51,649 nt of DNA from Candidatus Hermodarchaeum yapensis (GCA_016840405.1 JAEOSK010000019.1:1-51649); one strand, 5' to 3'; shown: positions 7,968 through 18,006, numbered from the stretch's first letter. Translations and numbers: made by a program. The notes: a model not told the origin generated them from the sequence alone.

Positions 7968-8471
7968 ATGAGGTTAATGAGTGTGAATCCACTAAAACGT
8001 CTTTTGGGTTACATTCTCAGCTTTTTTTATCACAAACAGATTCACGCGTTCAAGGTTCAACTGAATGGTCGCACCTACTATGTGTGTGCGCGATGTTCTG
8101 GATTTTATCTTGGGATAATATTTGGCTTTCCCATTTCATTTGCCATGTTACTCTTCTTCCCAATCTTCTATAGTCTCGGTCCAATCGGTACAACCATCAT
8201 CGCGATTGGTCTAGCTCTTCCCGCCATGCTTGATTGGTCAACCCAACGACTTGCGCTACGAGAAAGTCGAAATGCTTTACGCTTTGGCACTGGTCTCCCT
8301 GCAGGATTCTCACTCGTCTGGTATTTAGTATCTCCAAACGGTTTCATCCTGAAGATTCCCGTCTTTATTGGAGTCCTTATCTTTCTCATCATATTCGGCA
8401 AGATTGACCGCCGTACTCCACCTGAAAGCGAGTTAGAAGAAAATTATGACACGGAATCGAAAGGGAGCTAA
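7968..8471 (+). CDS. DUF2085-like membrane protein
   Basis: VCARCSGFYLG and P..LDWSTQ....RES.N.LRF.TG motifs. Confidence 0.8.
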   Translation: MRLMSVNPLKRLLGYILSFFYHKQIHAFKVQLNGRTYYVCARCSGFYLGIIFGFPISFAMLLFFPIFYSLGPIGTTIIAIGLALPAMLDWSTQRLALRESRNALRFGTGLPAGFSLVWYLVSPNGFILKIPVFIGVLIFLIIFGKIDRRTPPESELEENYDTESKGS

Positions 8472-9256
8472 TCCTTGCTCGCTTTGATTCGTTTCATTGC
8501 AGTCCGAGCAGCATCTTGAACAGACTCATCCGGATCCTGAACAGCTTCTTCAATGTCTTTAACGGCTCCTTCTGGTAATGAGTCCATACCTGCTAATGTA
8601 TTTACGGCAATGGCTCTTTGTTCTGGACGATCCCCGCGCATTGCCTCTAAAAGCCCAGGTACTGCATCAGAACCGATTTGTTCAAGTGCGGTCTTGGCAG
8701 CATTGCGAACCTCCATGCTCTCTCCATCGTGGATGAATTCTTCCTCATCCGTAAGAAGATCAATCAACCGTGGAACGGCTTCTGGCACCTCATTCCCCAA
8801 GTTTCCAATAGCTAGCGCGGCTTCACCCCGCACCACTTCATCACTGTCAGACAGGGCATCAGTGAGTGCATCCTTTCCATCAATAGCAGCTGAACCCATT
8901 TGTGAAAAGACACGAGCCACGGCCCTTCGGACTTCATCATCATCATGTGTTAACAGGGATGATAGTGACTCAGAAGCTTCTGCAGCATCTGAACCCATAT
9001 AGTACATAGCCTCTGCAGCATACCGGCAAATATCATCTTCATCACTCGAAAGTCCCAGAATTAACATGGGTAATGCTTCGAGTAGTCGAGGATGGTCCCC
9101 TGCTTTGGATACAATTTCGAAAGCCGATCGTTGCATGTCCTCATCCGTGCCTTCGAGCAGCCCCAAGAGATCCTCCCAAGCATACTCATCTTCATTAACC
9201 AAGGCTAGGGCTTTCTGAGTTTCCCCATCTTCCAACAGCTTCTGGAGGTCTGACAC
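8468..9256 (-). CDS. Acidic HEAT/PBS-lyase repeat protein
   Basis: Repeated L...L.D.D..VR..AA.AL..IG units. Confidence 0.9.
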   Translation of the reverse strand: MSDLQKLLEDGETQKALALVNEDEYAWEDLLGLLEGTDEDMQRSAFEIVSKAGDHPRLLEALPMLILGLSSDEDDICRYAAEAMYYMGSDAAEASESLSSLLTHDDDEVRRAVARVFSQMGSAAIDGKDALTDALSDSDEVVRGEAALAIGNLGNEVPEAVPRLIDLLTDEEEFIHDGESMEVRNAAKTALEQIGSDAVPGLLEAMRGDRPEQRAIAVNTLAGMDSLPEGAVKDIEEAVQDPDESVQDAARTAMKRIKASKD

Positions 9257-9401
9257 ACAAGTCGCCTCAAGATGTTTTTTCCTGAGATAGTATGAGTTTA
9301 CATCAGTTCAAAAAGGTTGTCGCCAGTACTTGAATCATCGATTAGGAGTAAGAGGTTCACAACTTTCACGAAAATTCAACAATTTCTCACAAAGGAGACG
9401 G

Positions 9402-10616
9402 CTAAAGACGCATTGTCCAATCATATTTTCGAAGCCCTAATGCGATTGTGACAGTAAGAAGCTGAATACCTGACTTACCACGAATTTGCGAATCCAAAAA
9501 TGCGTTCAGGGCATCACGCATTGGAAAACTAACCAGCAGTATGAGATTCTGGCGCTCACCGGTTTCCATTACAAGCTTCACTTCTTCAACTGCCCGCATA
9601 GCCTCGGTGAACTTCGTTAGCTGATTGGCTTCAACCTCCAATTGGATTAGCCCGAAGACATCCATGCCCACTCGCTGAGGATCAATTATCGTGCTAAACC
9701 CCTTGATTGTGTTATTTTGCTCCAGTCGGGCAACTCGACTCCGAATCGTTGCGTCACTAACCTTTAACCGACGAGACACATTCCGAAATGATAACCGCGC
9801 GTCCTGTTGCAGCAGGTTCAGGATCCGTCGATCCATCTCATCGAGATCAGCCCGGTGCTTTCGGCGTGATGGTTTTTCTGCTTCTGGTGTAGGATGATAT
9901 CCCAGATAATGAATGATGTCCCCACGATGTGCCATATTCAACCGATAGACATACAATGCCCGCCCTTTCATCTCAGAAGCTGAGGAGATAGCTTTGCATT
10001 GAAAACACCGAAACATCAGCCGCGGTTGGGCACTAATTGTGTTACAATTAAGACAATTGAAACCTAATTCCACTTTGTAGTCCTGTTGTTCGCCCTCCAA
10101 CGACTGCCCACAGGAGGGACACACCAGTTTTTTCCCCTTAGATTCAAATTCGCTTCGTGGAGCAACATGACCACAGGAAAAGTGTTCAATCATCGAATGC
10201 TGAACTAGACGACCACCCGAACACTTCAGACATTGATATTGGGGATGTAAATCCGGGGACTCACATTGCCGACACGCAAAAATGGTTTCCACCAGTTCCC
10301 CCTCAAGGAGGCCTGCCCGGTGAAGCTGTTCCAGTTTATCCACAGTTCCTTGGGCATCAGCTTCCAAGGTGAGTTCTGCCTCAGGATAGCGAAATCCATA
10401 GGAGGTCGATGAATCCAAAACGGGCTGCAATTCGACCAGGCTTCCGTCAAGCAATTGCTTGATTAACAGCCAGGCTCCTCGGTCTTCCAGTACAGAGGGT
10501 TGAAACGTCACAAGTCCACCCGCTTCCGTTGCATGTCCCAACAATCCTCTCGTTCGGGTGTTGATATGCTTTACTCTTATCACGAAACACCCAATCTTCA
10601 CAACCGCTTTCCACAA
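9402..10616 (-). CDS. TackOD1-like Zn-ribbon domain fused to a C-terminal Lrp/AsnC regulator; real start probably GTG 10510
   Basis: GFRYPEAE...L..L...GLL followed by six CxxC/HxxC pairs. C-terminal LDEMDRRILNLLQQDARLSFRNVSRRLKVSDATIRSRVARL is an AsnC HTH, followed by a RAM domain. SD-like GGGTGG precedes GTG 10510. Confidence 0.85.
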   Translation of the reverse strand: MWKAVVKIGCFVIRVKHINTRTRGLLGHATEAGGLVTFQPSVLEDRGAWLLIKQLLDGSLVELQPVLDSSTSYGFRYPEAELTLEADAQGTVDKLEQLHRAGLLEGELVETIFACRQCESPDLHPQYQCLKCSGGRLVQHSMIEHFSCGHVAPRSEFESKGKKLVCPSCGQSLEGEQQDYKVELGFNCLNCNTISAQPRLMFRCFQCKAISSASEMKGRALYVYRLNMAHRGDIIHYLGYHPTPEAEKPSRRKHRADLDEMDRRILNLLQQDARLSFRNVSRRLKVSDATIRSRVARLEQNNTIKGFSTIIDPQRVGMDVFGLIQLEVEANQLTKFTEAMRAVEEVKLVMETGERQNLILLVSFPMRDALNAFLDSQIRGKSGIQLLTVTIALGLRKYDWTMRL

Positions 10617-10628
10617 AAAGTGGAAAGC
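10606..10628. promoter_or_regulatory. Perfect palindrome, candidate operator
   Basis: GCTTTCCAC-AAAAA-GTGGAAAGC (9-bp arms, A-rich centre) upstream of the Lrp-fusion gene. Confidence 0.5.
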
Positions 10629-10890
10629 TTAAAAGACGACACAGAACCGCGCATCCGCGCAGAAACTAATTACAAAATTCACGTTTTTCTCTCAAGTATC
10701 TTGATTTAACTATGCAATTGCGTAGTTTTTTACCGCGGAACTACGCACGCTCCGTCTCCAAAGAATAGTACTTAGAGACACAGATACCGGGAAGCAACCT
10801 GGACGAGAATCGGCGGTCTCCGATGGCTCAAAAACCCACCCGGGAAGCACTCCCAAATTCCTGTCCCTCCCAAACTCCTCCCATAAAAAT

Positions 10891-11168
10891 CCGTTGTCCG
10901 AACCTCAAAAAAGCTCCTTTTATGAGCCACGGAGACCCGATCCCCGTCCGATCGTATGTAAAACGCCCCCCCACGGGGATGGCAACTGGTGGTGTTTTTA
11001 TACCTTTTTATGGACAACACAGGTGTCGCCGTCAGTTGGACGGAGACCCTAAACGCCTGTCAAGAGCCAGGAGGTGACAGCCCCTTTAGCGGGGCAGTGC
11101 CTGGCGATGAAGCAGGAACCGAACACCATCAGGCGAAATGTCCTAGTTGGGTAAGTTTCGGGCAACGG
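10891..11168 (+). mobile_element. Non-autonomous IS607-family derivative (MITE-like) without tnpA/tnpB
   Basis: Ends in GTAAGTTTCGGGCAACGG, resembling IS607 right ends. 10891-10907 is a 14/17 inverted repeat of 11152-11168. The left boundary is uncertain. Confidence 0.5.
10995..11004 (+). promoter_or_regulatory. TATA box for the omegaRNA-like transcript
   Basis: TTTTTATACC lies ~25 nt upstream of the structured RNA start (~11021-11028). Confidence 0.55.
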
Positions 11169-11238
11169 TAAAAGGGGAATGACCACAGGAAGGCTACCCT
11201 CGCATTTTGTGGTTGGGCACCTCCTTACCATTTTTTTT
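11021..11238 (+). ncRNA. IS607-type TnpB omegaRNA-like scaffold (to 11168) plus 3' guide/tail ending in T8
   Basis: Motifs in order: CCGTCAGTTGGACGG hairpin, AAACGCCTGT, GCCAGG/CCTGGC stem, GATGAAGCAGGAACCGAACACC, terminal stem ending AACGG. This order matches what I recall for IS607 tnpB 3' ends. T8 tract at 11231-11238. Confidence 0.75.
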
Positions 11239-11305
11239 ATCGTGAAAAAATATAAGCGCCCGTGAACCTCATGTGAAGTCAACGGGCGAAGCATCATAAA
11301 TCTGC

Positions 11306-12019
11306 TTAGGAACTCACTATTACAAAGTAAATGCTTAGAATGATTAGAATCCCTGCGACGATGATTAGTCCGTAGGTAAAGAGTATGAAAGGCGCAGTAT
11401 ATTGAACAAGAGCCATTAGAATTAGCCCAATGAACCAGAGAGTTTGACCAATCATGGCAATCCAAGTCCACGTTTTTGCCATACCCTGTCGAGCTTGCGC
11501 AATGCGATAGAGGACAATGAGCGGTATCAAGAGTAAATAGAAGATGGCAAGGAAACCGCCATAAGCGACAAGTGTAAACGGCATCGCTAGAAAATTCATA
11601 ACTCCATCAGATACGATTGTGACAGTGGCCGGTGTAGGAAGAATCCATACGAGTGCAAGAAAGGTAAGCGTACCTATGATGGGAAGAAAAATCGCCCAAA
11701 TCCGTCTCTTGAAAAATGGAAGACCAAGCATATACATTACCAAGAAGAAACCATGTAACCCAATAAAGCTCCAAGCGCCAAGATACGTTGGTAAGAGTTG
11801 ATCAACCGTTGCAGCAGCTGGCAAAACGTACATTGAGATAGCTAAGACCATAAAAGTTAGAAAAGCAAAGAAAGCACCCAGAAACAAGTTGTATAATGTA
11901 CAACTAGGCTCCTCGCTTCTAAGAGCCAAAATCAAGGCTATTAGAGAACCAAGGAGTGTAAGAACGCAGATTATGATAACTAGTCCAAAATGTAATGGTG
12001 TTTCAGCAATGTAGAGCAT
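11306..12019 (-). CDS. Stand-alone 7-TM membrane protein (HisKA_7TM-like sensor without kinase domain)
   Basis: Seven hydrophobic helices, beta-hairpin-like loop between TM4 and TM5, no cytoplasmic output domain. Confidence 0.65.
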   Translation of the reverse strand: MLYIAETPLHFGLVIIICVLTLLGSLIALILALRSEEPSCTLYNLFLGAFFAFLTFMVLAISMYVLPAAATVDQLLPTYLGAWSFIGLHGFFLVMYMLGLPFFKRRIWAIFLPIIGTLTFLALVWILPTPATVTIVSDGVMNFLAMPFTLVAYGGFLAIFYLLLIPLIVLYRIAQARQGMAKTWTWIAMIGQTLWFIGLILMALVQYTAPFILFTYGLIIVAGILIILSIYFVIVSS

Positions 12020-12229
12020 TCCAAGGAACCCTCCAGCATGCCATCCTTTTGTTTTTGTTTATAAACACTTACTTTTGTGTGCGTTTTATTTGTCATATAT
12101 ATAGCCACTAGGCTCACTCTAAAAGACAACGCGTCCATATGGTTAGAGTATCCAGAAACTCCATGTCTCGCGGGCATAACTTTTTTCCGATTCTAATCTG
12201 TTTTCCGGAAAAAACTCCAGCACCTAAAG

Positions 12230-12244
12230 GAAAGCATTTTAAAT
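12230..12244 (+). promoter_or_regulatory. BRE/TATA promoter
   Basis: GAAAGCATTTTAAAT has the same GAAAG + T/A-box layout as the promoters at 1584 and 16385. Confidence 0.55.
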
Positions 12245-12265
12245 TCAGTACACCAATAACACCCT

Positions 12266-12533
12266 GGAATATAGGGAGTTCCCGAGGTGGAATAGAGCAC
12301 AACTCAACACCCCCTACCGTTGAGAAGGCAACCTATCTCCCCTCACCGCAAATCACCATATTTCACCATAGGACTCACAACGACGTGAAAACGAGGAACA
12401 CCATCGGCGACAGGAATCGGGGTATCCTTCCCTGTGTCTTTCATTCCCCTCTCCCCCTCTCCTCCTTTATGTCCTCGTTCTGGACGCCCCGTTCCCGCTA
12501 TAGGGTGACGCACCCTGCGTCACCCGTTTTTTT
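12266..12533 (+). ncRNA. Candidate structured small RNA (~265 nt), family unknown
   Basis: Flanked by a promoter and a terminator. Stems CTCAAC/GTTGAG, AACGAGGA/TCCTCGTT and TATAG/CTATA. C-rich repeats; no convincing ORF. Confidence 0.5.
12503..12533 (+). terminator. 10-bp perfect hairpin plus T7
   Basis: GGGTGACGCA-CCC-TGCGTCACCC-G-TTTTTTT. Confidence 0.7.
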
Positions 12534-12611
12534 GGCTTAATCCTTTAACGCAATATTTGTCATTGGAGTGGATTGTGAAACCTAGTTCTGATTCACAACC
12601 AGTTTGTGTTA

Positions 12612-14033
12612 TTACTTGGACGGTTCTTTCCATTGTTGTGCCGTTGCATTCCATAGAGTAACGGTTGAAAGTGCAGGTTCTTGGGGAATATCGCGTTTGA
12701 ATCGTAGAACCGAGACAGTTCGGATATCAGAGAAGTTCAGGAGTGTCCGGGTGAGTTGTTTCATTAGACTGGCCCCGCCACTAGAAATCCCGATGAAGAT
12801 TATGGCTCCTTTATTCGTAGGGTATAACCGACTCATTGTGTATTGGGAGATGAGTTGATGAAAAGTTGGCAGAATAACCTCATCACTTTGAGTAATGATA
12901 CAGATGATATCGTCAAAGGTAAGGCGACTGAAGGCTACAGACGGGAAAAGGGTTTTCATTTTCTTGAGTTGCCGTTCATGTTTCCAGACTGTTTTTTCTG
13001 CTAGTGGAAAACCGTATTTGGACAGCAGGTGTGTTCGTTCTTTTTTTGTTAGCAGAGCTTCACTGAGTGTTAAGGCGAGAAGCCAGTCTGCTGGGTTAAA
13101 TGTGATTGAATCTTGGCTGTAATCAAATCCTCGAAGAGGTGGGAATTGTTCTCCATGATGGTCTATGAACTGCGCAAGTCCTTCAGTTTGTACATCTGAT
13201 AAGATTCGCCATTGCTGTGAAACATGATTATAATAATCAAAGCTGATGTGTGAATAGTATCCTTTGATTTGATGGATATCAGAAGTGACGAAGAACTGTT
13301 CTCGAATATTTTCTAGTAAACGATGAATGGTCCTGATCCATGAACTCTGGTTGGGGGAGTAAAATAAGAGACAACCATCTTGATTATTAACATCCCATCC
13401 GCAACCTAACAGAAAGGGAAGCTGATTTTCCCTCAAAGCTTTAGTGCGAATCCAGGTATCAAAAGCTTGAGTGGCTTCGATAGACTTGGTTCGAAAAAGA
13501 ATACAATATTGTATGAGTCCAAACCGTTGTGGGTCCAATATTGATGCGTTTCGGATTCCGTATTGGGAAAACAATTGTTGCTTTTCGCGTTTCATTATTC
13601 GTGGACTAATTCCTAAGATGTTAGCTAGCGCTACTGAACCAATTTCAGGATTCAGTTGTTGGGTTGTGAGAAATTCGGTCTGTCGTCGATTCAGTTTTAG
13701 TGGAGATGGTGGAAGAAGCCCTGCGGTTAATAATTCTATAGCTCTATCTCCATCAGCTAGTCCAAAGCTAGCTAAGCGATGAAGTCGAAATTCCAATTCC
13801 GTTCCCAATTCATAAGACAATGGTTGATGTCTAATACCAACTAATGGATAATCACGAACGTCCGAATCCGCTATTTCTGATGCCCCGAGAAAAACTCGAT
13901 TTAGATATAGGATAATTTGAGCTAGCACTAGCTTGAGTTGAACTTTGTTCTGATCTTGAACGTTTTCTACAATATTTTCCGTAAGTCTCCGCCAAGACTC
14001 AAGTTGACTTGACATTCCGATTCCGTCGTTCAA
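12612..14033 (-). CDS. Putative transcription regulator with tandem (winged-helix + Lrp/RAM-like) modules; start may be ATG 14015
   Basis: wHTH 'LNRRQTEFL...NPEIGSVALANILGISPRIMKREKQQL', 'LDPQRFGL', 'FDYY....QW' and a second wHTH 'EKTVWKHERQLKK'. Paralog of 14727-16154. Confidence 0.65.
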   Translation of the reverse strand: MNDGIGMSSQLESWRRLTENIVENVQDQNKVQLKLVLAQIILYLNRVFLGASEIADSDVRDYPLVGIRHQPLSYELGTELEFRLHRLASFGLADGDRAIELLTAGLLPPSPLKLNRRQTEFLTTQQLNPEIGSVALANILGISPRIMKREKQQLFSQYGIRNASILDPQRFGLIQYCILFRTKSIEATQAFDTWIRTKALRENQLPFLLGCGWDVNNQDGCLLFYSPNQSSWIRTIHRLLENIREQFFVTSDIHQIKGYYSHISFDYYNHVSQQWRILSDVQTEGLAQFIDHHGEQFPPLRGFDYSQDSITFNPADWLLALTLSEALLTKKERTHLLSKYGFPLAEKTVWKHERQLKKMKTLFPSVAFSRLTFDDIICIITQSDEVILPTFHQLISQYTMSRLYPTNKGAIIFIGISSGGASLMKQLTRTLLNFSDIRTVSVLRFKRDIPQEPALSTVTLWNATAQQWKEPSK

Positions 14034-14365
14034 TACCCGCTCGTTACTCCCTTTAAATATAAGCTGGATGAGAAAAAATGGTACTAATCCCCCTCTTCTT
14101 TGACAAATTTCGTCAATCCTGCCTTCCTTCTTGACCTATTACGCCTTTATTTACCTTCAAAATTCCCGAACAACCAATTAAAAACGAGTTTTATCTAATC
14201 CACGCCCACACCTGACATTTCCACTAGAAAACATTTCTCAGACGCTCCCAATTCCTTCTTTATAAGGGTCGTTTATACATCTTCAGTTGGAGAGGAAAAA
14301 TACCACCCTGGTATGCTCCTCCATACCATAGCACATGAACTATCAAAATCGAATAGGGAATAACC

Positions 14366-14632
14366 GTGAAAACTGAATCAGCTCCCCCAAACCCGCTACG
14401 TAGCGCACCAAAAATTGCCCTCAAACTGAATGATCAGCTTTCCGAAGGAAAGGTCCGCTACTTGTACATTAACCGCTACTCAGAACAAGAAATTTCCCGC
14501 CAACTTGCAGCCATTTGTCAACTATTCCTCCTGGCACTATCACGGGACTTTGGTATCCATTCACCCAAGGATATCACCATTGAGCCATCCGATACCGGGG
14601 GAGTCAAACTAAGAATCATCGGGCGTGATTAG
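14366..14632 (+). CDS. Small hypothetical protein (88 aa), divergent from the regulator
   Basis: TATA-like CTTTATAAG at 14258-14266, AGGGA before GTG, globular alpha/beta-looking sequence, downstream hairpin. Confidence 0.65.
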   Translation: MKTESAPPNPLRSAPKIALKLNDQLSEGKVRYLYINRYSEQEISRQLAAICQLFLLALSRDFGIHSPKDITIEPSDTGGVKLRIIGRD

Positions 14633-14639
14633 GCACCTA

Positions 14640-14690
14640 ACACCCAGAACAAAGGGGCATTCATCCCACCTGAATGCCCCGCCTGGGTGT
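14640..14690. terminator. Extended hairpin between convergent genes
   Basis: GGGGCATTCA-TCCCACC-TGAATGCCCC with outer ACACCCAG/CTGGGTGT arms. Confidence 0.6.
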
Positions 14691-14726
14691 AACACCAGAC
14701 AATACTTCAACTAAAAAAAGCGTTGA

Positions 14727-16154
14727 TTAGATTTCCTCATCTGCAAATTCCCAATATTGACGTTTCTCATTCCATCGTTCGTATAAATTCTGCTGAAGCC
14801 CACTTCCCACATTCCGTTCTTGATGAATCACTAATAAATCTTCAATTTCGAAAATCTCTGGTATATCTCGGATCAATTTGTGAATAAACCCCCTCCACCC
14901 TGTTGGGCGTTTTAAAAAAATTGCTACACCTTGTATTGTGTCATACGTGAATGCCGCCGGAAAGAAAGATCCAAGCAATTGGAGTTGTTTTTTGACATCA
15001 GGTTTACAGTAGATGCTAAGACAGATGAATTCTTCAAATCCCGCACCGCTGAAATATAGCATGGGTGAAATAACGGCTTCCTTCTTCAACCGATTGAGAT
15101 GGACCCAAATTGCGTTCTTTGAAAAATGCCATCCATAACTTTCAAGAAACTCCTGTAAATCGGCGAGAGTATGTTGTGGACCAATCGCCATATTTGCTAA
15201 AAGATAATCACTTCGGCTGAATGAAACCGGGGATTGTAAGTCGACGTAATTACAATACGAGATGGTTGGAAATCTCTTTTCTTCAGGCTTGGGTATCTCA
15301 GAGAGATTTTCCAGTTCAGAAGGAATCCGCCACTGACCAACTGTGTGATCATACAGGTCAAACCGCATGTTCCAATACATTTCGAGAACTTGATGCAAAT
15401 GAACCTGATCCATATAGGTTCGATCAATCTGCTGGACTCGATCTTCAAACAGTCGATGAGCACGCTGTTGGGTTGGAATAGCGTATGTTATGAATCCATA
15501 ACGATAGGACACATCAAATACTAATGATGTCAGAAATGGTGGTTGCGTTTGCTGGACCCATGCTTCGAATTCTTGTGAGGCTTCAAAGGATTGTGTACGA
15601 AAAACGAGACTAAAGATTGTGAGTTTCAGTTTTCCACGATTTTCTGAATATAATCTCCGAAGGCCAATATCATTTTCCAGTCTTTTGATGGTGTTTGTAA
15701 CAACATATCGAGATTTTTTTACTCGGGTCGCAAGGCGAGAACTACTAATCAGTGGTTCTTCGGCAAGAATGTTAAGAATAGATATTTCGTCTTTAGTTAG
15801 CGATCTGTGAGAAGTTCTTTCTAAGCCATAAAGAAGTATTTCTTGAATACGTGACACTGAACGAATGCGGTATTCTTCGAGAATTCGGATACGATCCCGT
15901 AAGGATTCGGCAATTTCTGTGGAGATTGCGAGTTTCAAAAATTGGAGTTTTGGATGACTATTGTAGGTTTTTTCCTCTCGAGTCAGATCATCTGTTTCAA
16001 CGCGTTTGATGAAGAGGATTGCACTATAGAGTAGGCGACAAGTGTCGTCTTGTTCTGCTTTTGGTTTTACCCTCGAAACAATTCGATCTGCGATTTTTCG
16101 TAAAGGGTGGTCAATCACTCCCACCATATTGTTAACTCTGATGCTTCCACACAA
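14727..16154 (-). CDS. Putative transcription regulator with tandem (winged-helix + Lrp/RAM-like) modules; start probably ATG 16127
   Basis: wHTH 'LTKDEISILNILAEEPLISSSRLATRVKKSRYVVTNTIKRL', 'FDLYD....QW' and a second wHTH 'KNAIWVHLNRLKKE'. Same length and architecture as 12612-14033. Confidence 0.7.
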   Translation of the reverse strand: MCGSIRVNNMVGVIDHPLRKIADRIVSRVKPKAEQDDTCRLLYSAILFIKRVETDDLTREEKTYNSHPKLQFLKLAISTEIAESLRDRIRILEEYRIRSVSRIQEILLYGLERTSHRSLTKDEISILNILAEEPLISSSRLATRVKKSRYVVTNTIKRLENDIGLRRLYSENRGKLKLTIFSLVFRTQSFEASQEFEAWVQQTQPPFLTSLVFDVSYRYGFITYAIPTQQRAHRLFEDRVQQIDRTYMDQVHLHQVLEMYWNMRFDLYDHTVGQWRIPSELENLSEIPKPEEKRFPTISYCNYVDLQSPVSFSRSDYLLANMAIGPQHTLADLQEFLESYGWHFSKNAIWVHLNRLKKEAVISPMLYFSGAGFEEFICLSIYCKPDVKKQLQLLGSFFPAAFTYDTIQGVAIFLKRPTGWRGFIHKLIRDIPEIFEIEDLLVIHQERNVGSGLQQNLYERWNEKRQYWEFADEEI

Positions 16155-16384
16155 AAAGTTGATTCTTGTAGTGATTGCCGAGAGAAAATTGCTAAGAAGT
16201 GAAATATAATTTACAGTTTTCTCATGACTTCTTGGCTAAAATGATGAAAAAACGTCATTTACCGCTTGAATCCAAAAAAACGCCCCAAATCGCATTAGTT
16301 TGGGTACTTAGTAGAATGAAATCGTAGTAATACGCTCTTACTGTCTTTAACTCCCATTTTTCTTCGCTTTAAATCAAATCGATT

Positions 16385-16398
16385 GAAAGTTTTACAAA
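16385..16398 (+). promoter_or_regulatory. BRE/TATA promoter for a near-leaderless small ORF
   Basis: GAAAGTTTTACAAA lies ~25 nt before ATG 16417. Confidence 0.55.
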
Positions 16399-16416
16399 AC
16401 ACAATCGTGTGATTAT

Positions 16417-16575
16417 ATGGTAGATATCAAATCATTTGTAATTAGGCATCGTCCCGTCCTGATGGCTTCAATTATTCTCATCGCACTATTCACTCTTCAA
16501 CTGTTCCTCGTTCACATTGGTCTACTCCCAGGAATCCTGGCTGATCCTGGAAACAATCCACCACCATGGCATTAA
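16417..16575 (+). CDS. Unannotated 52-aa membrane/secreted peptide MVDIKSFVIRHRPVLMASIILIALFTLQLFLVHIGLLPGILADPGNNPPPWH
   Basis: ATG-to-TAA ORF below the 60-aa cutoff of the ORF track. Basic N-region, hydrophobic core, Pro-rich C-tail, promoter at canonical spacing. Confidence 0.7.
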   Translation: MVDIKSFVIRHRPVLMASIILIALFTLQLFLVHIGLLPGILADPGNNPPPWH

Positions 16576-16624
16576 TTCTCAGAAACATAGCATTTGACGA
16601 TCTCTTCACGATCAGCCCGATTGG

Positions 16625-17569
16625 TTGGGTCACAGGTTAAAATCGAAAGAAGGGAATACATTGCCAATGGGTGCGGTACTGCTCGAATTTGATGTGAAAA
16701 TGGGTCCGATCTTCAAATTTGCTGTCCCTAGCACACTTGAAGTTACACAAGATGAAACCATGGTCTTATTCGGAACCCGATCGGTAGTAGAGGAAGGATT
16801 CACAGGACTCACAGTCAAGGATCGCACTTGGGTAACCTATCTGAATCCCCCTTACCTTTATTGTATTCTGTTGAATCCCATGGAACATCAAGGTGAATTT
16901 GAAGAAGCCATGAAGTCCACGTTGAGTAAAGTTGAATATGATATAAACATTGACCAAGCAAAGCTTATGGAACTTTATCATGACATCCTTTCAAAGACTG
17001 AAGTTCAACTACAGGACCAATTAAGTTCACGACCTGATGTTCAAAAGTTATTAGAAGCGCTCAAAGAGAATCCCGATTCCTTTCGTCCAACTTGGTCTCT
17101 TAAAACTGGCTATCGATATCCTGCAGCTGAAAAAATAACTGGAAAATCAACCAAGGAAACGAATGGCCTTTTAGTTACAATGATGTCTGCAAATATTATT
17201 CAGGGACGAATTTGTGGGAATATTGTGGTTTGTCCTTCCTGTACTTCACACCGAGTTATTCTCCATGCCAGTTGTCCTCAATGTGGCCTTCCAACTCTAG
17301 AATCAGGGATCGCTCTTGAACACTTCGTTTGTAATTATACTGCCTTTATTGAAGCTTTTGCCACACCCTCAGGTCTTGTTTGTCCGCATTGCAAATCTTA
17401 CCTCTCACCAGGAACCTACCGCTCTCCAGGCAAAGTCTTCCACTGTATCACTTGTAATAGCTATCCCAAAACACCTGAATACACACTTGGATGCATCGAT
17501 TGCAAAGAGGCCTTTTCACCTGAAATTGCAAAATTTACTCCCATCTATTGCTATACTGCTCTCAAATAA
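16625..17569 (+). CDS. Longin/uDENN-like N-terminal domain fused to a TackOD1-like Zn-ribbon domain; start probably 16661 or 16667
   Basis: N-terminal 'AVLLEFDVKMGP' (F-D-x3-G-P longin/uDENN motif). C-terminal GYRYP plus six CxxC/HxxC pairs, homologous to 9402-10616. Confidence 0.75.
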   Translation: MGHRLKSKEGNTLPMGAVLLEFDVKMGPIFKFAVPSTLEVTQDETMVLFGTRSVVEEGFTGLTVKDRTWVTYLNPPYLYCILLNPMEHQGEFEEAMKSTLSKVEYDINIDQAKLMELYHDILSKTEVQLQDQLSSRPDVQKLLEALKENPDSFRPTWSLKTGYRYPAAEKITGKSTKETNGLLVTMMSANIIQGRICGNIVVCPSCTSHRVILHASCPQCGLPTLESGIALEHFVCNYTAFIEAFATPSGLVCPHCKSYLSPGTYRSPGKVFHCITCNSYPKTPEYTLGCIDCKEAFSPEIAKFTPIYCYTALK

Positions 17570-17657
17570 TTGATCCAGCGAAAAAAGTGGATTAAGGAAC
17601 TCTTCTGTCCAGTAGGCTGTTCGCAGATTGTCCTAACTTAAACCAGTAGCAGATTGG

Positions 17658-17849
17658 TTACTTAAGGACAATTGCTTCTTCAGCACAGTTTTCCACACAA
17701 CTTTCACAGTCGACGCAAGCGTCAGGATCTGTGACCTTAGAGAGATTATCTTCTAAGGTGAAACATTCACTGGGGCAAACATCAACGCAGGTTCCACAGC
17801 CAGTGCATTTTGATTCATCTACAACTGGTGGCATGATTTCTTTTTCCAT
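17658..17849 (-). CDS. 2x[4Fe-4S] ferredoxin (start may be ATG 17834)
   Basis: CTGCGTCVDVCP and CVDCESCVENCA motifs. Confidence 0.95.
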   Translation of the reverse strand: MEKEIMPPVVDESKCTGCGTCVDVCPSECFTLEDNLSKVTDPDACVDCESCVENCAEEAIVLK

Positions 17850-18006
17850 CCTTGATTTTCTGATCCTCGATCCCCGCTGAATCGGGGTTTAAGGATGCCG
17901 TTTTCAACATAGCTTCAGTATTTTAACTGTTACACTCGGTCAAAGTTTCCTGATACGTAAGCATAATAAGAACCGTGGGGACAACTCCCTACCTCGACTA
18001 TTTTGT

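Follow-up and report, generated by a model that had tools for sequence, protein, structure and literature searches.

Positions 9,402 to 17,569 of a 51,649 nt stretch of DNA from Candidatus Hermodarchaeum yapensis (GCA_016840405.1 JAEOSK010000019.1:1-51649; the whole stretch is referred to as the window) carry a dense series of regulatory genes and noncoding RNA (ncRNA) candidates. Comparison with related genomes indicates that this region is probably a mosaic in evolutionary terms, put together from at least four regulatory modules that can separate, and not one circuit. An initial annotation had described it as a single signalling circuit, in which four regulator or receptor genes were each paired divergently with a short transcript. 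The long intergenic regions that it pointed out are present (spacers of 704, 592, 350, 94, 536 and 88 nt; median 443 nt vs 68.5 nt in the rest of the window), and most of its gene labels proved sound, but the modules separate in relatives. The elements concerned, with winged helix-turn-helix abbreviated to wHTH, transmembrane to TM, open reading frame to ORF and B recognition element to BRE, are as follows.

8468..9256, minus strand: HEAT-repeat protein (Pfam HEAT_2, 88 bits), downstream of TackOD1-Lrp on the same strand
9402..10616, minus strand: TackOD1-Lrp/AsnC regulator (Pfam TackOD1 113.5 bits, HTH_AsnC 54.6 bits; AsnC_trans_reg 23.2 bits, below its 25-bit cut-off)
10655..11238, plus strand: RNA-A, a conserved structured RNA candidate of ~385 nt in relatives, here split by an insertion of ~198 nt
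10974..11172, plus strand: omegaRNA insertion inside RNA-A, a solo remnant with a TnpB 3' end and an omegaRNA scaffold (IS200/605-type right end)
11306..12019, minus strand: 7-TM protein, 237 aa, stand-alone, HisKA_7TM-like fold, no output domain
~12265-12541, plus strand: RNA-B, with BRE/TATA at ~12230-12244, a conserved 5' arm, a variable middle with a covarying hairpin, a pyrimidine-rich core, and a terminator hairpin with T-run
12612-14033 (alternatively 12612..14015), minus strand: Reg1, tandem Lrp/AsnC-like, an N-terminal helical domain and two wHTH-RAM units
14366..14632, plus strand: orf88, a conserved small protein of 88 aa between Reg1 and Reg2
14727-16154 (alternatively 14727..16127), minus strand: Reg2, tandem Lrp/AsnC-like (Pfam HTH_24, 25 bits)
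16417..16575, plus strand: 52-aa ORF, no support as a gene
16664..17569 (alternatively 16625-17569), plus strand: longin-wHTH-zinc-ribbon (TackOD1) protein, here longin-TackOD1 (C-terminal Pfam TackOD1, 88 bits)
17658..17849, minus strand: ferredoxin, 63 aa, 2x[4Fe-4S], with codon-periodic conservation and a Pfam Fer4 match, at the far edge of a variable slot

Gene order and the modular make-up of the region

No prokaryotes are more closely related to eukaryotes than the Asgard archaea, and to our knowledge very little is known about gene regulation in this group. The genome under study (G000; 2.7 Mb, 77 contigs, 86 % complete) was set against 14 genomes of the same genus (g1) and four of a sister genus (g2), giving a family-level comparison of 18 genomes, as well as 130-280 other Asgard genomes. 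The common order in g1 was NAD synthase, DUF2085, HEAT, TackOD1-Lrp, RNA-A, 7-TM (one to three copies), RNA-B, the variable slot, ferredoxin, RidA and NMO. TackOD1-Lrp, RNA-A, 7-TM and RNA-B were found together in at least seven genomes and Reg1-orf88-Reg2 in ten, with the latter filling the slot in six (G000, G011, G003, G007, G006 and G004). At the place of window positions 12534-17580, the closest relative, G005, whose flanking proteins are 89-95 % identical, had a 536-nt stretch containing a small membrane ORF. The cassette was absent from this slot in G014, where ~770 nt separated RNA-B from the ferredoxin gene, and the 6.4 kb slot of G001 contained no Reg homologue. G012 and G009 carried longin-TackOD1-Reg2-orf88-Reg1 on another contig, in a common context of nitroreductase, GNAT and BPL_N-like genes, with TldD/PmbA genes on the other side in G012. 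In G011, TackOD1-Lrp was mostly lost (a 36-aa C-terminal remnant), RNA-A had no match at the locus and RNA-B was kept. In g2, RNA-A and RNA-B were directly tandem, each with its own TATA, beside the ferredoxin and RidA genes, and the TackOD1-Lrp-HEAT pair was not with the RNAs but at another locus, where it is divergent to an M28 peptidase gene. The ferredoxin gene was divergent from RidA and adjoined it in both genera. Only two multi-gene units stayed together wherever they were present, namely Reg1-orf88-Reg2 and TackOD1-Lrp-HEAT.

These distributions can be arranged as a putative sequence of layers. The oldest, at family level, would be the tandem ncRNA candidates RNA-A and RNA-B, each with its own promoter and terminator. 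The second, the family-level TackOD1-Lrp and HEAT-repeat unit, would have been put beside RNA-A in g1 only, and a third, again confined to g1, would consist of one to three output-less 7-TM genes between the RNAs. The fourth would be a movable Reg1-orf88-Reg2 cassette in the variable slot between RNA-B and the ferredoxin gene. Longin-TackOD1, ancestrally the second gene of a small-GTPase operon, would have been shifted beside Reg2 in one sublineage as a fifth layer, and debris of an IS200/605-type element, the omegaRNA, would form the sixth.

In the circuit proposed initially, a peptide/7-TM sensor would act through a longin adaptor and TackOD1-TackOD1 contacts on the Lrp-type regulators and the RNAs, all as one functional signalling unit. 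Every component is indeed regulatory or sensory in type, and the distant Asgard genome G053 has TackOD1-Lrp-like, longin-TackOD1-like and several small GTPase genes within ~13 kb. We nonetheless consider such a unit quite unlikely, given that its modules come apart in close relatives and in the sister genus, that the ancestral partner of longin-TackOD1 is a GTPase, that the 52-aa peptide ORF is unconserved, that the omegaRNA is an insertion, and that distant Reg homologues occur without the other components nearby. Two of the four proposed regulator/transcript pairs fail, as they depend on the insertion sequence remnant and the unconserved ORF. The two TackOD1-domain genes said to bracket the island do so only in genomes with a relocated longin-TackOD1 gene, and the bracket is a derived feature. 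Recurring synteny had been named as the check, with scattered components counting against a circuit; sub-blocks were found to recur within g1, but the whole island was not. The comparative evidence does not support an integrated circuit, although every part is regulatory and some cross-talk between modules may occur. The case also carries a caution, in that a dense regulator cluster is not evidence for a circuit, and comparison with close relatives took this one apart.

Several observations weigh against reading the region as a mosaic. The Reg cassette directly adjoins RNA-B in six of the eight genomes where both could be placed. In two different genomic contexts, longin-TackOD1 has remained next to Reg2; this is the one observation that favours a link, and it could reflect selection for linkage. 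The relatives' assemblies are fragmented and 72-91 % complete, and some apparent absences may be assembly gaps. All relatives carrying the blocks fall within one family whose phylogeny is star-like, so the order they share is mostly a matter of inheritance and cannot decide for or against functional coupling. Lastly, invariant RNA segments give no covariation, so that the case for a long-range helix within RNA-B and for an RNA-A/RNA-B duplex is one of complementarity.

The slot of G005 (L042:294-829) has an ORF of ~125 aa that encodes a small multi-pass membrane protein.

The RNA-A/RNA-B pair and the omegaRNA insertion

Of all elements of the locus, the RNA pair is the most novel and the one that lends itself best to testing; the locus yields two strong family-specific ncRNA candidates with conserved mutual complementarity. 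What had been annotated as a 265-nt RNA was recovered as RNA-B, a promoter-to-terminator unit of ~277 nt that is conserved in relatives. At least 48 nt of its core were 100 % invariant in 12 genomes of two genera, in which the neighbouring proteins are 40-78 % identical. BLASTN gave one strong match per genome in 10 of 14 g1 and three of four g2 genomes, and one marginal match (E 9.9e-4) in 282 other Asgard genomes. A covariance model (CM) of the 3' part of RNA-B (CM R2, 141 positions) returned the same 13 genomes and none of 132 others, and RNA-B is therefore taken to be restricted to the family. The unit persisted without Reg1/Reg2 in G014, G001 and G005, and was also present in G011. RNA-A always co-occurred with RNA-B, whereas the converse fails in G011. 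Rfam gave no match in the window at the gathering threshold, and two chance-level rows (E about 1) for 9000-18000 at E <= 1, neither of them RNA-A or RNA-B; a tRNA/tmRNA scan likewise found none. A 133-aa ORF overlapping RNA-B is broken by indels between relatives. No paper on RNA-B-like units surfaced in literature searches, which were aimed at the protein families and did not cover the RNAs themselves.

RNA-A has the following parts, all read on the plus strand.

10628-10635: AT-rich TATA-like box
10713-10728: operator-like palindrome (RNA-A also has a C-rich block and several helices)
11172-11200: 3' tail
11231-11238: hairpin and T8

An alignment across seven genomes showed compensatory changes in seven of 84 predicted pairs. 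Many further changes from C-G to U-G retain pairing on the plus strand and would be C-A mismatches on the minus strand; a plus-strand RNA is therefore favoured. In g2, RNA-A has its own TATA and no divergent gene upstream. The 5' end contains a perfect 16-bp palindrome, CTACGCAATTGCGTAG (10713-10728), with a downstream half-site, ACTACGCA (10740-10747), which are kept in seven genomes and occur in variant form in g2; together they form a candidate operator.

The capacity of the two elements to pair was scored by a sliding-window duplex test in nine genomes. In all nine, the RNA-A 3' tail was by far the best partner within RNA-A for the invariant RNA-B core, with duplex energies of -25 to -35 kcal/mol in g1 and -38 to -40 in g2, against approximately -8 for the median window and -13 to -21 for the best of the remaining, non-overlapping windows. 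The pairing potential of tail and core amounts to 10 + 9 bp. The tail differs between genera but the core does not, and the core segment in question is also the predicted pairing partner of the RNA-B 5' arm. A search for other extended targets of the core in the genome returned only chance-level 11-14-mers. Unrestricted RNAduplex runs of RNA-A against RNA-B produced full-length duplexes without meaning and were superseded by the windowed test. If both elements are transcribed and pair in vivo, as we infer, they may constitute a riboregulatory pair in which RNA-A, by competing with the internal helix of RNA-B, governs whether a CCUCC-rich tract of the latter is exposed.

RNA-A and RNA-B might alternatively be conserved cis-regulatory DNA, serving as operators or enhancer-like platforms to which the Lrp-type regulators encoded next to them attach; the complementarity of the two would then be an inverted repeat at the DNA level. 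Extended, repeated binding sites are characteristic of Lrp/AsnC proteins, and the perfect palindrome with its extra half-site in the 5' part of RNA-A fits this reading, as does invariance without covariation. A platform of this kind is harder to reconcile with the BRE/TATA at fixed distance and the end hairpin with T-run on each element, which are kept in g2 despite different neighbours, or with RNA-A helices that tolerate C-to-U changes on the plus strand only. RNA-B, moreover, persists in the three genomes without Reg1/Reg2 and in G011, where TackOD1-Lrp is the 36-aa remnant. We regard a purely cis-acting DNA role as unlikely and favour a pair of RNAs.

The omegaRNA assigned as the short transcript of TackOD1-Lrp does belong to the TnpB-associated repeat family, but it is a lineage-specific insertion in an older element, has no adjacent TnpB gene and is not a partner of TackOD1-Lrp. 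The omegaRNA model (CM R1, 151 positions) matched 11021-11179 with 148 bits and an intact scaffold over all 151 model positions. Nine other copies in the genome showed 72-81 % identity; five of these adjoin a TnpB TNB domain directly on its 3' side, and the sequence here is of the same sequence and structure family as the copies that follow TnpB genes. Unlike those, it has no TnpB ORF: tblastn gave only TnpB residues ~279-314, in two frames, at 11025-11133 (the last ~35 codons, frameshifted). Alignment and covariance model both showed the insertion to be absent from the same site in the relatives' RNA-A loci, and it lies inside another conserved element. The omegaRNA here is transposon debris. 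A functional omegaRNA, served by TnpB in trans and using the RNA-A tail as a guide that would steer the nuclease or a repressor to the RNA-B locus, would draw on the intact scaffold, on TnpB-domain matches at ~30 places in the genome and on the complementarity between the sequence after the scaffold, which is the ancestral RNA-A 3' tail, and the RNA-B core. That complementarity, however, predates the insertion and is present in all relatives without it, and in this genome the match is weaker, split 10 + 9 with a 2-3-nt loop. With no adjacent TnpB gene, and with a copy that is unique to this lineage and accompanied by four other solo copies elsewhere in the genome, we consider such a function very improbable.

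RNA-A itself shares the 12-nt CCGTTGTCCGAA with the reverse complement of the scaffold 3' end, but was rejected as omegaRNA-like, since CM R1 found just the two insertions at E <= 10. An independent omegaRNA remnant was observed in G009 (L036:5929-6085), in the same spacer between TackOD1-Lrp and 7-TM, at a different site and in opposite orientation, and this spacer seems prone to IS200/605 insertions. The ~30 genome places mentioned above match TnpB TNB or OrfB_IS605 domains, several with in-frame stops, and at least four solo omegaRNA copies without a TnpB gene were located (C30, C18, C77 and C45).

The tandem Lrp cassette and longin-TackOD1

Reg1 and Reg2 were initially labelled double-wHTH regulators, correctly; more exactly, they are tandem Lrp/AsnC paralogues of 466-468 aa that are 24 % identical (E 4e-38). 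The AlphaFold2 model of Reg2 (pLDDT 88) comprises an N-terminal helical domain followed by two units of wHTH and beta-alpha-beta-beta-alpha-beta RAM domain in one chain. Its best Foldseek match was the siroheme decarboxylase NirDL (E 1.5e-6, probability 1.00, 342 columns), followed by dozens of single Lrp/AsnC regulators. Both proteins share the doubled wHTH-RAM fold with the fused NirDL/AhbAB enzymes, from which they differ by an extra N-terminal helical domain of ~100 aa and by the lack of an NCBIfam AhbA/AhbB match at E <= 0.1; identity to NirDL was 11-12 %. Reg1 orthologues with 37-47 % identity occurred in nine relatives, always with orf88 and Reg2. The 88-aa ORF between them, already listed initially, is a conserved protein in those relatives (43-64 % identity by tblastn) with a conserved C-terminal stretch of ~60 aa and no Pfam match. 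Because it is present, absent or elsewhere among close relatives, the cassette appears to function independently, and a transcription module that responds to a small molecule is its most likely nature. The fused double Lrp regulators seen at the locus make up a lineage-specific family and have a small, conserved protein as their partner.

The Reg family has five copies in this genome and forms an Asgard-restricted multigene family, whose more distant members are tandem paralogues; none of these had a TackOD1, 7-TM or orf88 homologue nearby. A second Reg cluster (L010; G000:C42:46000-65999) holds three paralogues, two in tandem and one ~5 kb away, with no orf88-like gene, and is neighboured by genes for an F420-0:gamma-glutamyl ligase, a RimK-like ligase, a MobA-like transferase, a TnpB fragment and a gelsolin-repeat protein. 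Pfam searches of the flanks of this cluster and of the G012 cassette returned unrelated metabolic genes and no integrase.

In a divergent pair with Reg2, the initial annotation placed a 52-aa peptide and a longin-TackOD1 protein. The peptide was not borne out, with no tblastn match in loci L001-L009 and a spacer that fails to align with G012 and G009, both of which share the Reg2/longin-TackOD1 arrangement. A GTPase gene remnant upstream of longin-TackOD1 was considered as a source of this ORF and none was found.

The longin-TackOD1 assignment was upheld at both ends of the protein. Its C-terminal TackOD1 match is well above the Pfam cut-off (PF18551, 32 bits), and AlphaFold2 with DSSP gave an N-terminal domain of beta-beta-alpha-beta-beta-beta-alpha order, the arrangement of a longin fold. 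In VIA-align searches, this part (residues 1-111) matched the GATOR1 entry 8fw5_B with Z 10.3 (root-mean-square deviation 2.6, 110 aligned), the SEA complex entry 8adl_S with Z 9.2, the VAMP7 longin with 9.0 and a Lokiarchaeota longin domain with 8.9. Foldseek longin rows were weak (E >= 3e-3), no Pfam longin match was found, and an Atlas feature search offered no more than a weak lead (0.80), a cluster in which 19 % of the members have NPR2. From residue ~112, VIA-align matched ArsR-type wHTH domains with Z of ~9, which suggests that the N-terminal part of the TackOD1 domain is an ArsR-like winged helix.

Orthologues with 50-58 % identity lay 1-32 nt downstream of an Arf/Ras/Rag-like small GTPase gene in G007, G006, G004 and two metagenome contigs. 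The order was SnoaL, GTPase, longin-TackOD1, a 278-aa gene and AA-kinase in the three genomes, and GTPase then longin-TackOD1 in the metagenome contigs. The genome under study has SnoaL, GTPase and AA-kinase on contig C49 (L032), without longin-TackOD1 or the 278-aa gene. From these two arrangements it follows that the gene was relocated to a position beside Reg2 in the lineage to which this genome, G012 and G009 belong. Longin-TackOD1 is most likely a GTPase partner with a DNA-binding-type output. Known longin/roadblock partners of GTPases include MglB with MglA, NPRL2 of GATOR1 and FLCN with Rag GTPases, and Asgard longin/roadblock proteins (PMC10933270). The protein resembles these in its longin-like fold and in orthologues that follow an Arf/Rag-like GTPase gene, and is unlike them in the fusion of the longin domain to a wHTH and zinc-ribbon (TackOD1) module and, in this genome, in its position outside the GTPase operon. 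In the cultured Lokiarchaeon strain MK-D1, GTPase genes do not as a rule share operons with genes for longin or roadblock proteins (PMC10933270), which makes the operon found here noteworthy. An NPRL2-like longin domain with a DNA-binding-type module, in a gene that follows one for a Rag/Arf-like GTPase, gives a hint of how transcription could have come within reach of GTPase signalling before eukaryotes.

A bolder reading, which we put forward as a tentative possibility, has two separate parts. The GTPase and longin-TackOD1 operon would be a direct small-GTPase-to-DNA output. RNA-A and RNA-B would be a new trans-interacting regulatory RNA pair of one Asgard family, with the RNA-A tail opening or sequestering an RNA-B core that the 5' arm of RNA-B otherwise holds closed. 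Around this pair g1 would have recruited the 7-TM, TackOD1-Lrp and tandem-Lrp regulators as a growing hub.

The GTPase operons of the relatives were located at L026:9435-11841, L028:9385-12413 and L029-L031, with a second TackOD1 gene following in L028, and in this genome the 278-aa gene lies on contig C39 (70063-70869). The ~13 kb cluster of G053 (L054; G053:C1:3322000-3341000) comprises three tandem small GTPase genes, a TackOD1-Lrp-like gene (34-35 % identity) and a longin-TackOD1-like gene with a GTPase gene ~1.8 kb upstream of it, an arrangement that suggests a wider association of TackOD1 with GTPases.

TackOD1-Lrp, its HEAT partner and the 7-TM protein

The TackOD1-Lrp label was also confirmed. 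Its TackOD1 and HTH_AsnC (27-bit cut-off) matches are clear, both wHTH and RAM domains are present, and NCBIfam Lrp, LysM and AsnC models align to residues 255-394; the real start is probably a GTG at 10601. Orthologues are 65-90 % identical in g1 and ~51 % in g2, and the protein is probably a ligand-responsive transcription factor. The only mention of TackOD1 found in the literature was a 2018 census, in which the architectures are TackOD1 alone, REC-TackOD1 and REC-wHTH-TackOD1 and the function of the domain is obscure (Galperin et al. 2018, PMC5847659). Both TackOD1 proteins of the region pass the Pfam cut-off and carry the multi-CxxC zinc-ribbon pattern, with invariant Cys/His columns in the alignment. 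Unlike the output domains of archaeal response regulators, neither is joined to REC and no histidine kinase is nearby; the proteins scanned between 7193 and 20999 gave no REC, HisKA or HATPase_c match. TackOD1-Lrp shares a canonical HTH_AsnC and RAM domain with Lrp/AsnC regulators and differs in its N-terminal TackOD1, an architecture outside the census list (PMC5847659).

The gene for the HEAT-repeat protein, the conserved partner of TackOD1-Lrp, adjoins the orthologue of the latter in both g1 and g2. It and the ferredoxin gene both lay outside the initially listed components.

The 7-TM protein gave no Pfam family at E <= 0.1, HisKA_7TM (PF16927) included, and no homologue in any of the four g2 genomes at E <= 1e-8; in g1 it occurs as one to three tandem copies. 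It differs from HisKA_7TM sensors in that no kinase, GGDEF, HD or other output is attached and the 7-TM module stands alone. The initial description as a 7-TM protein holds, with seven hydrophobic segments. Its Atlas model resembles the HisKA_7TM sensor module structurally, reaching TM-scores of 0.72-0.80 over ~220 residues to clusters in which 44-100 % of members carry PF16927.

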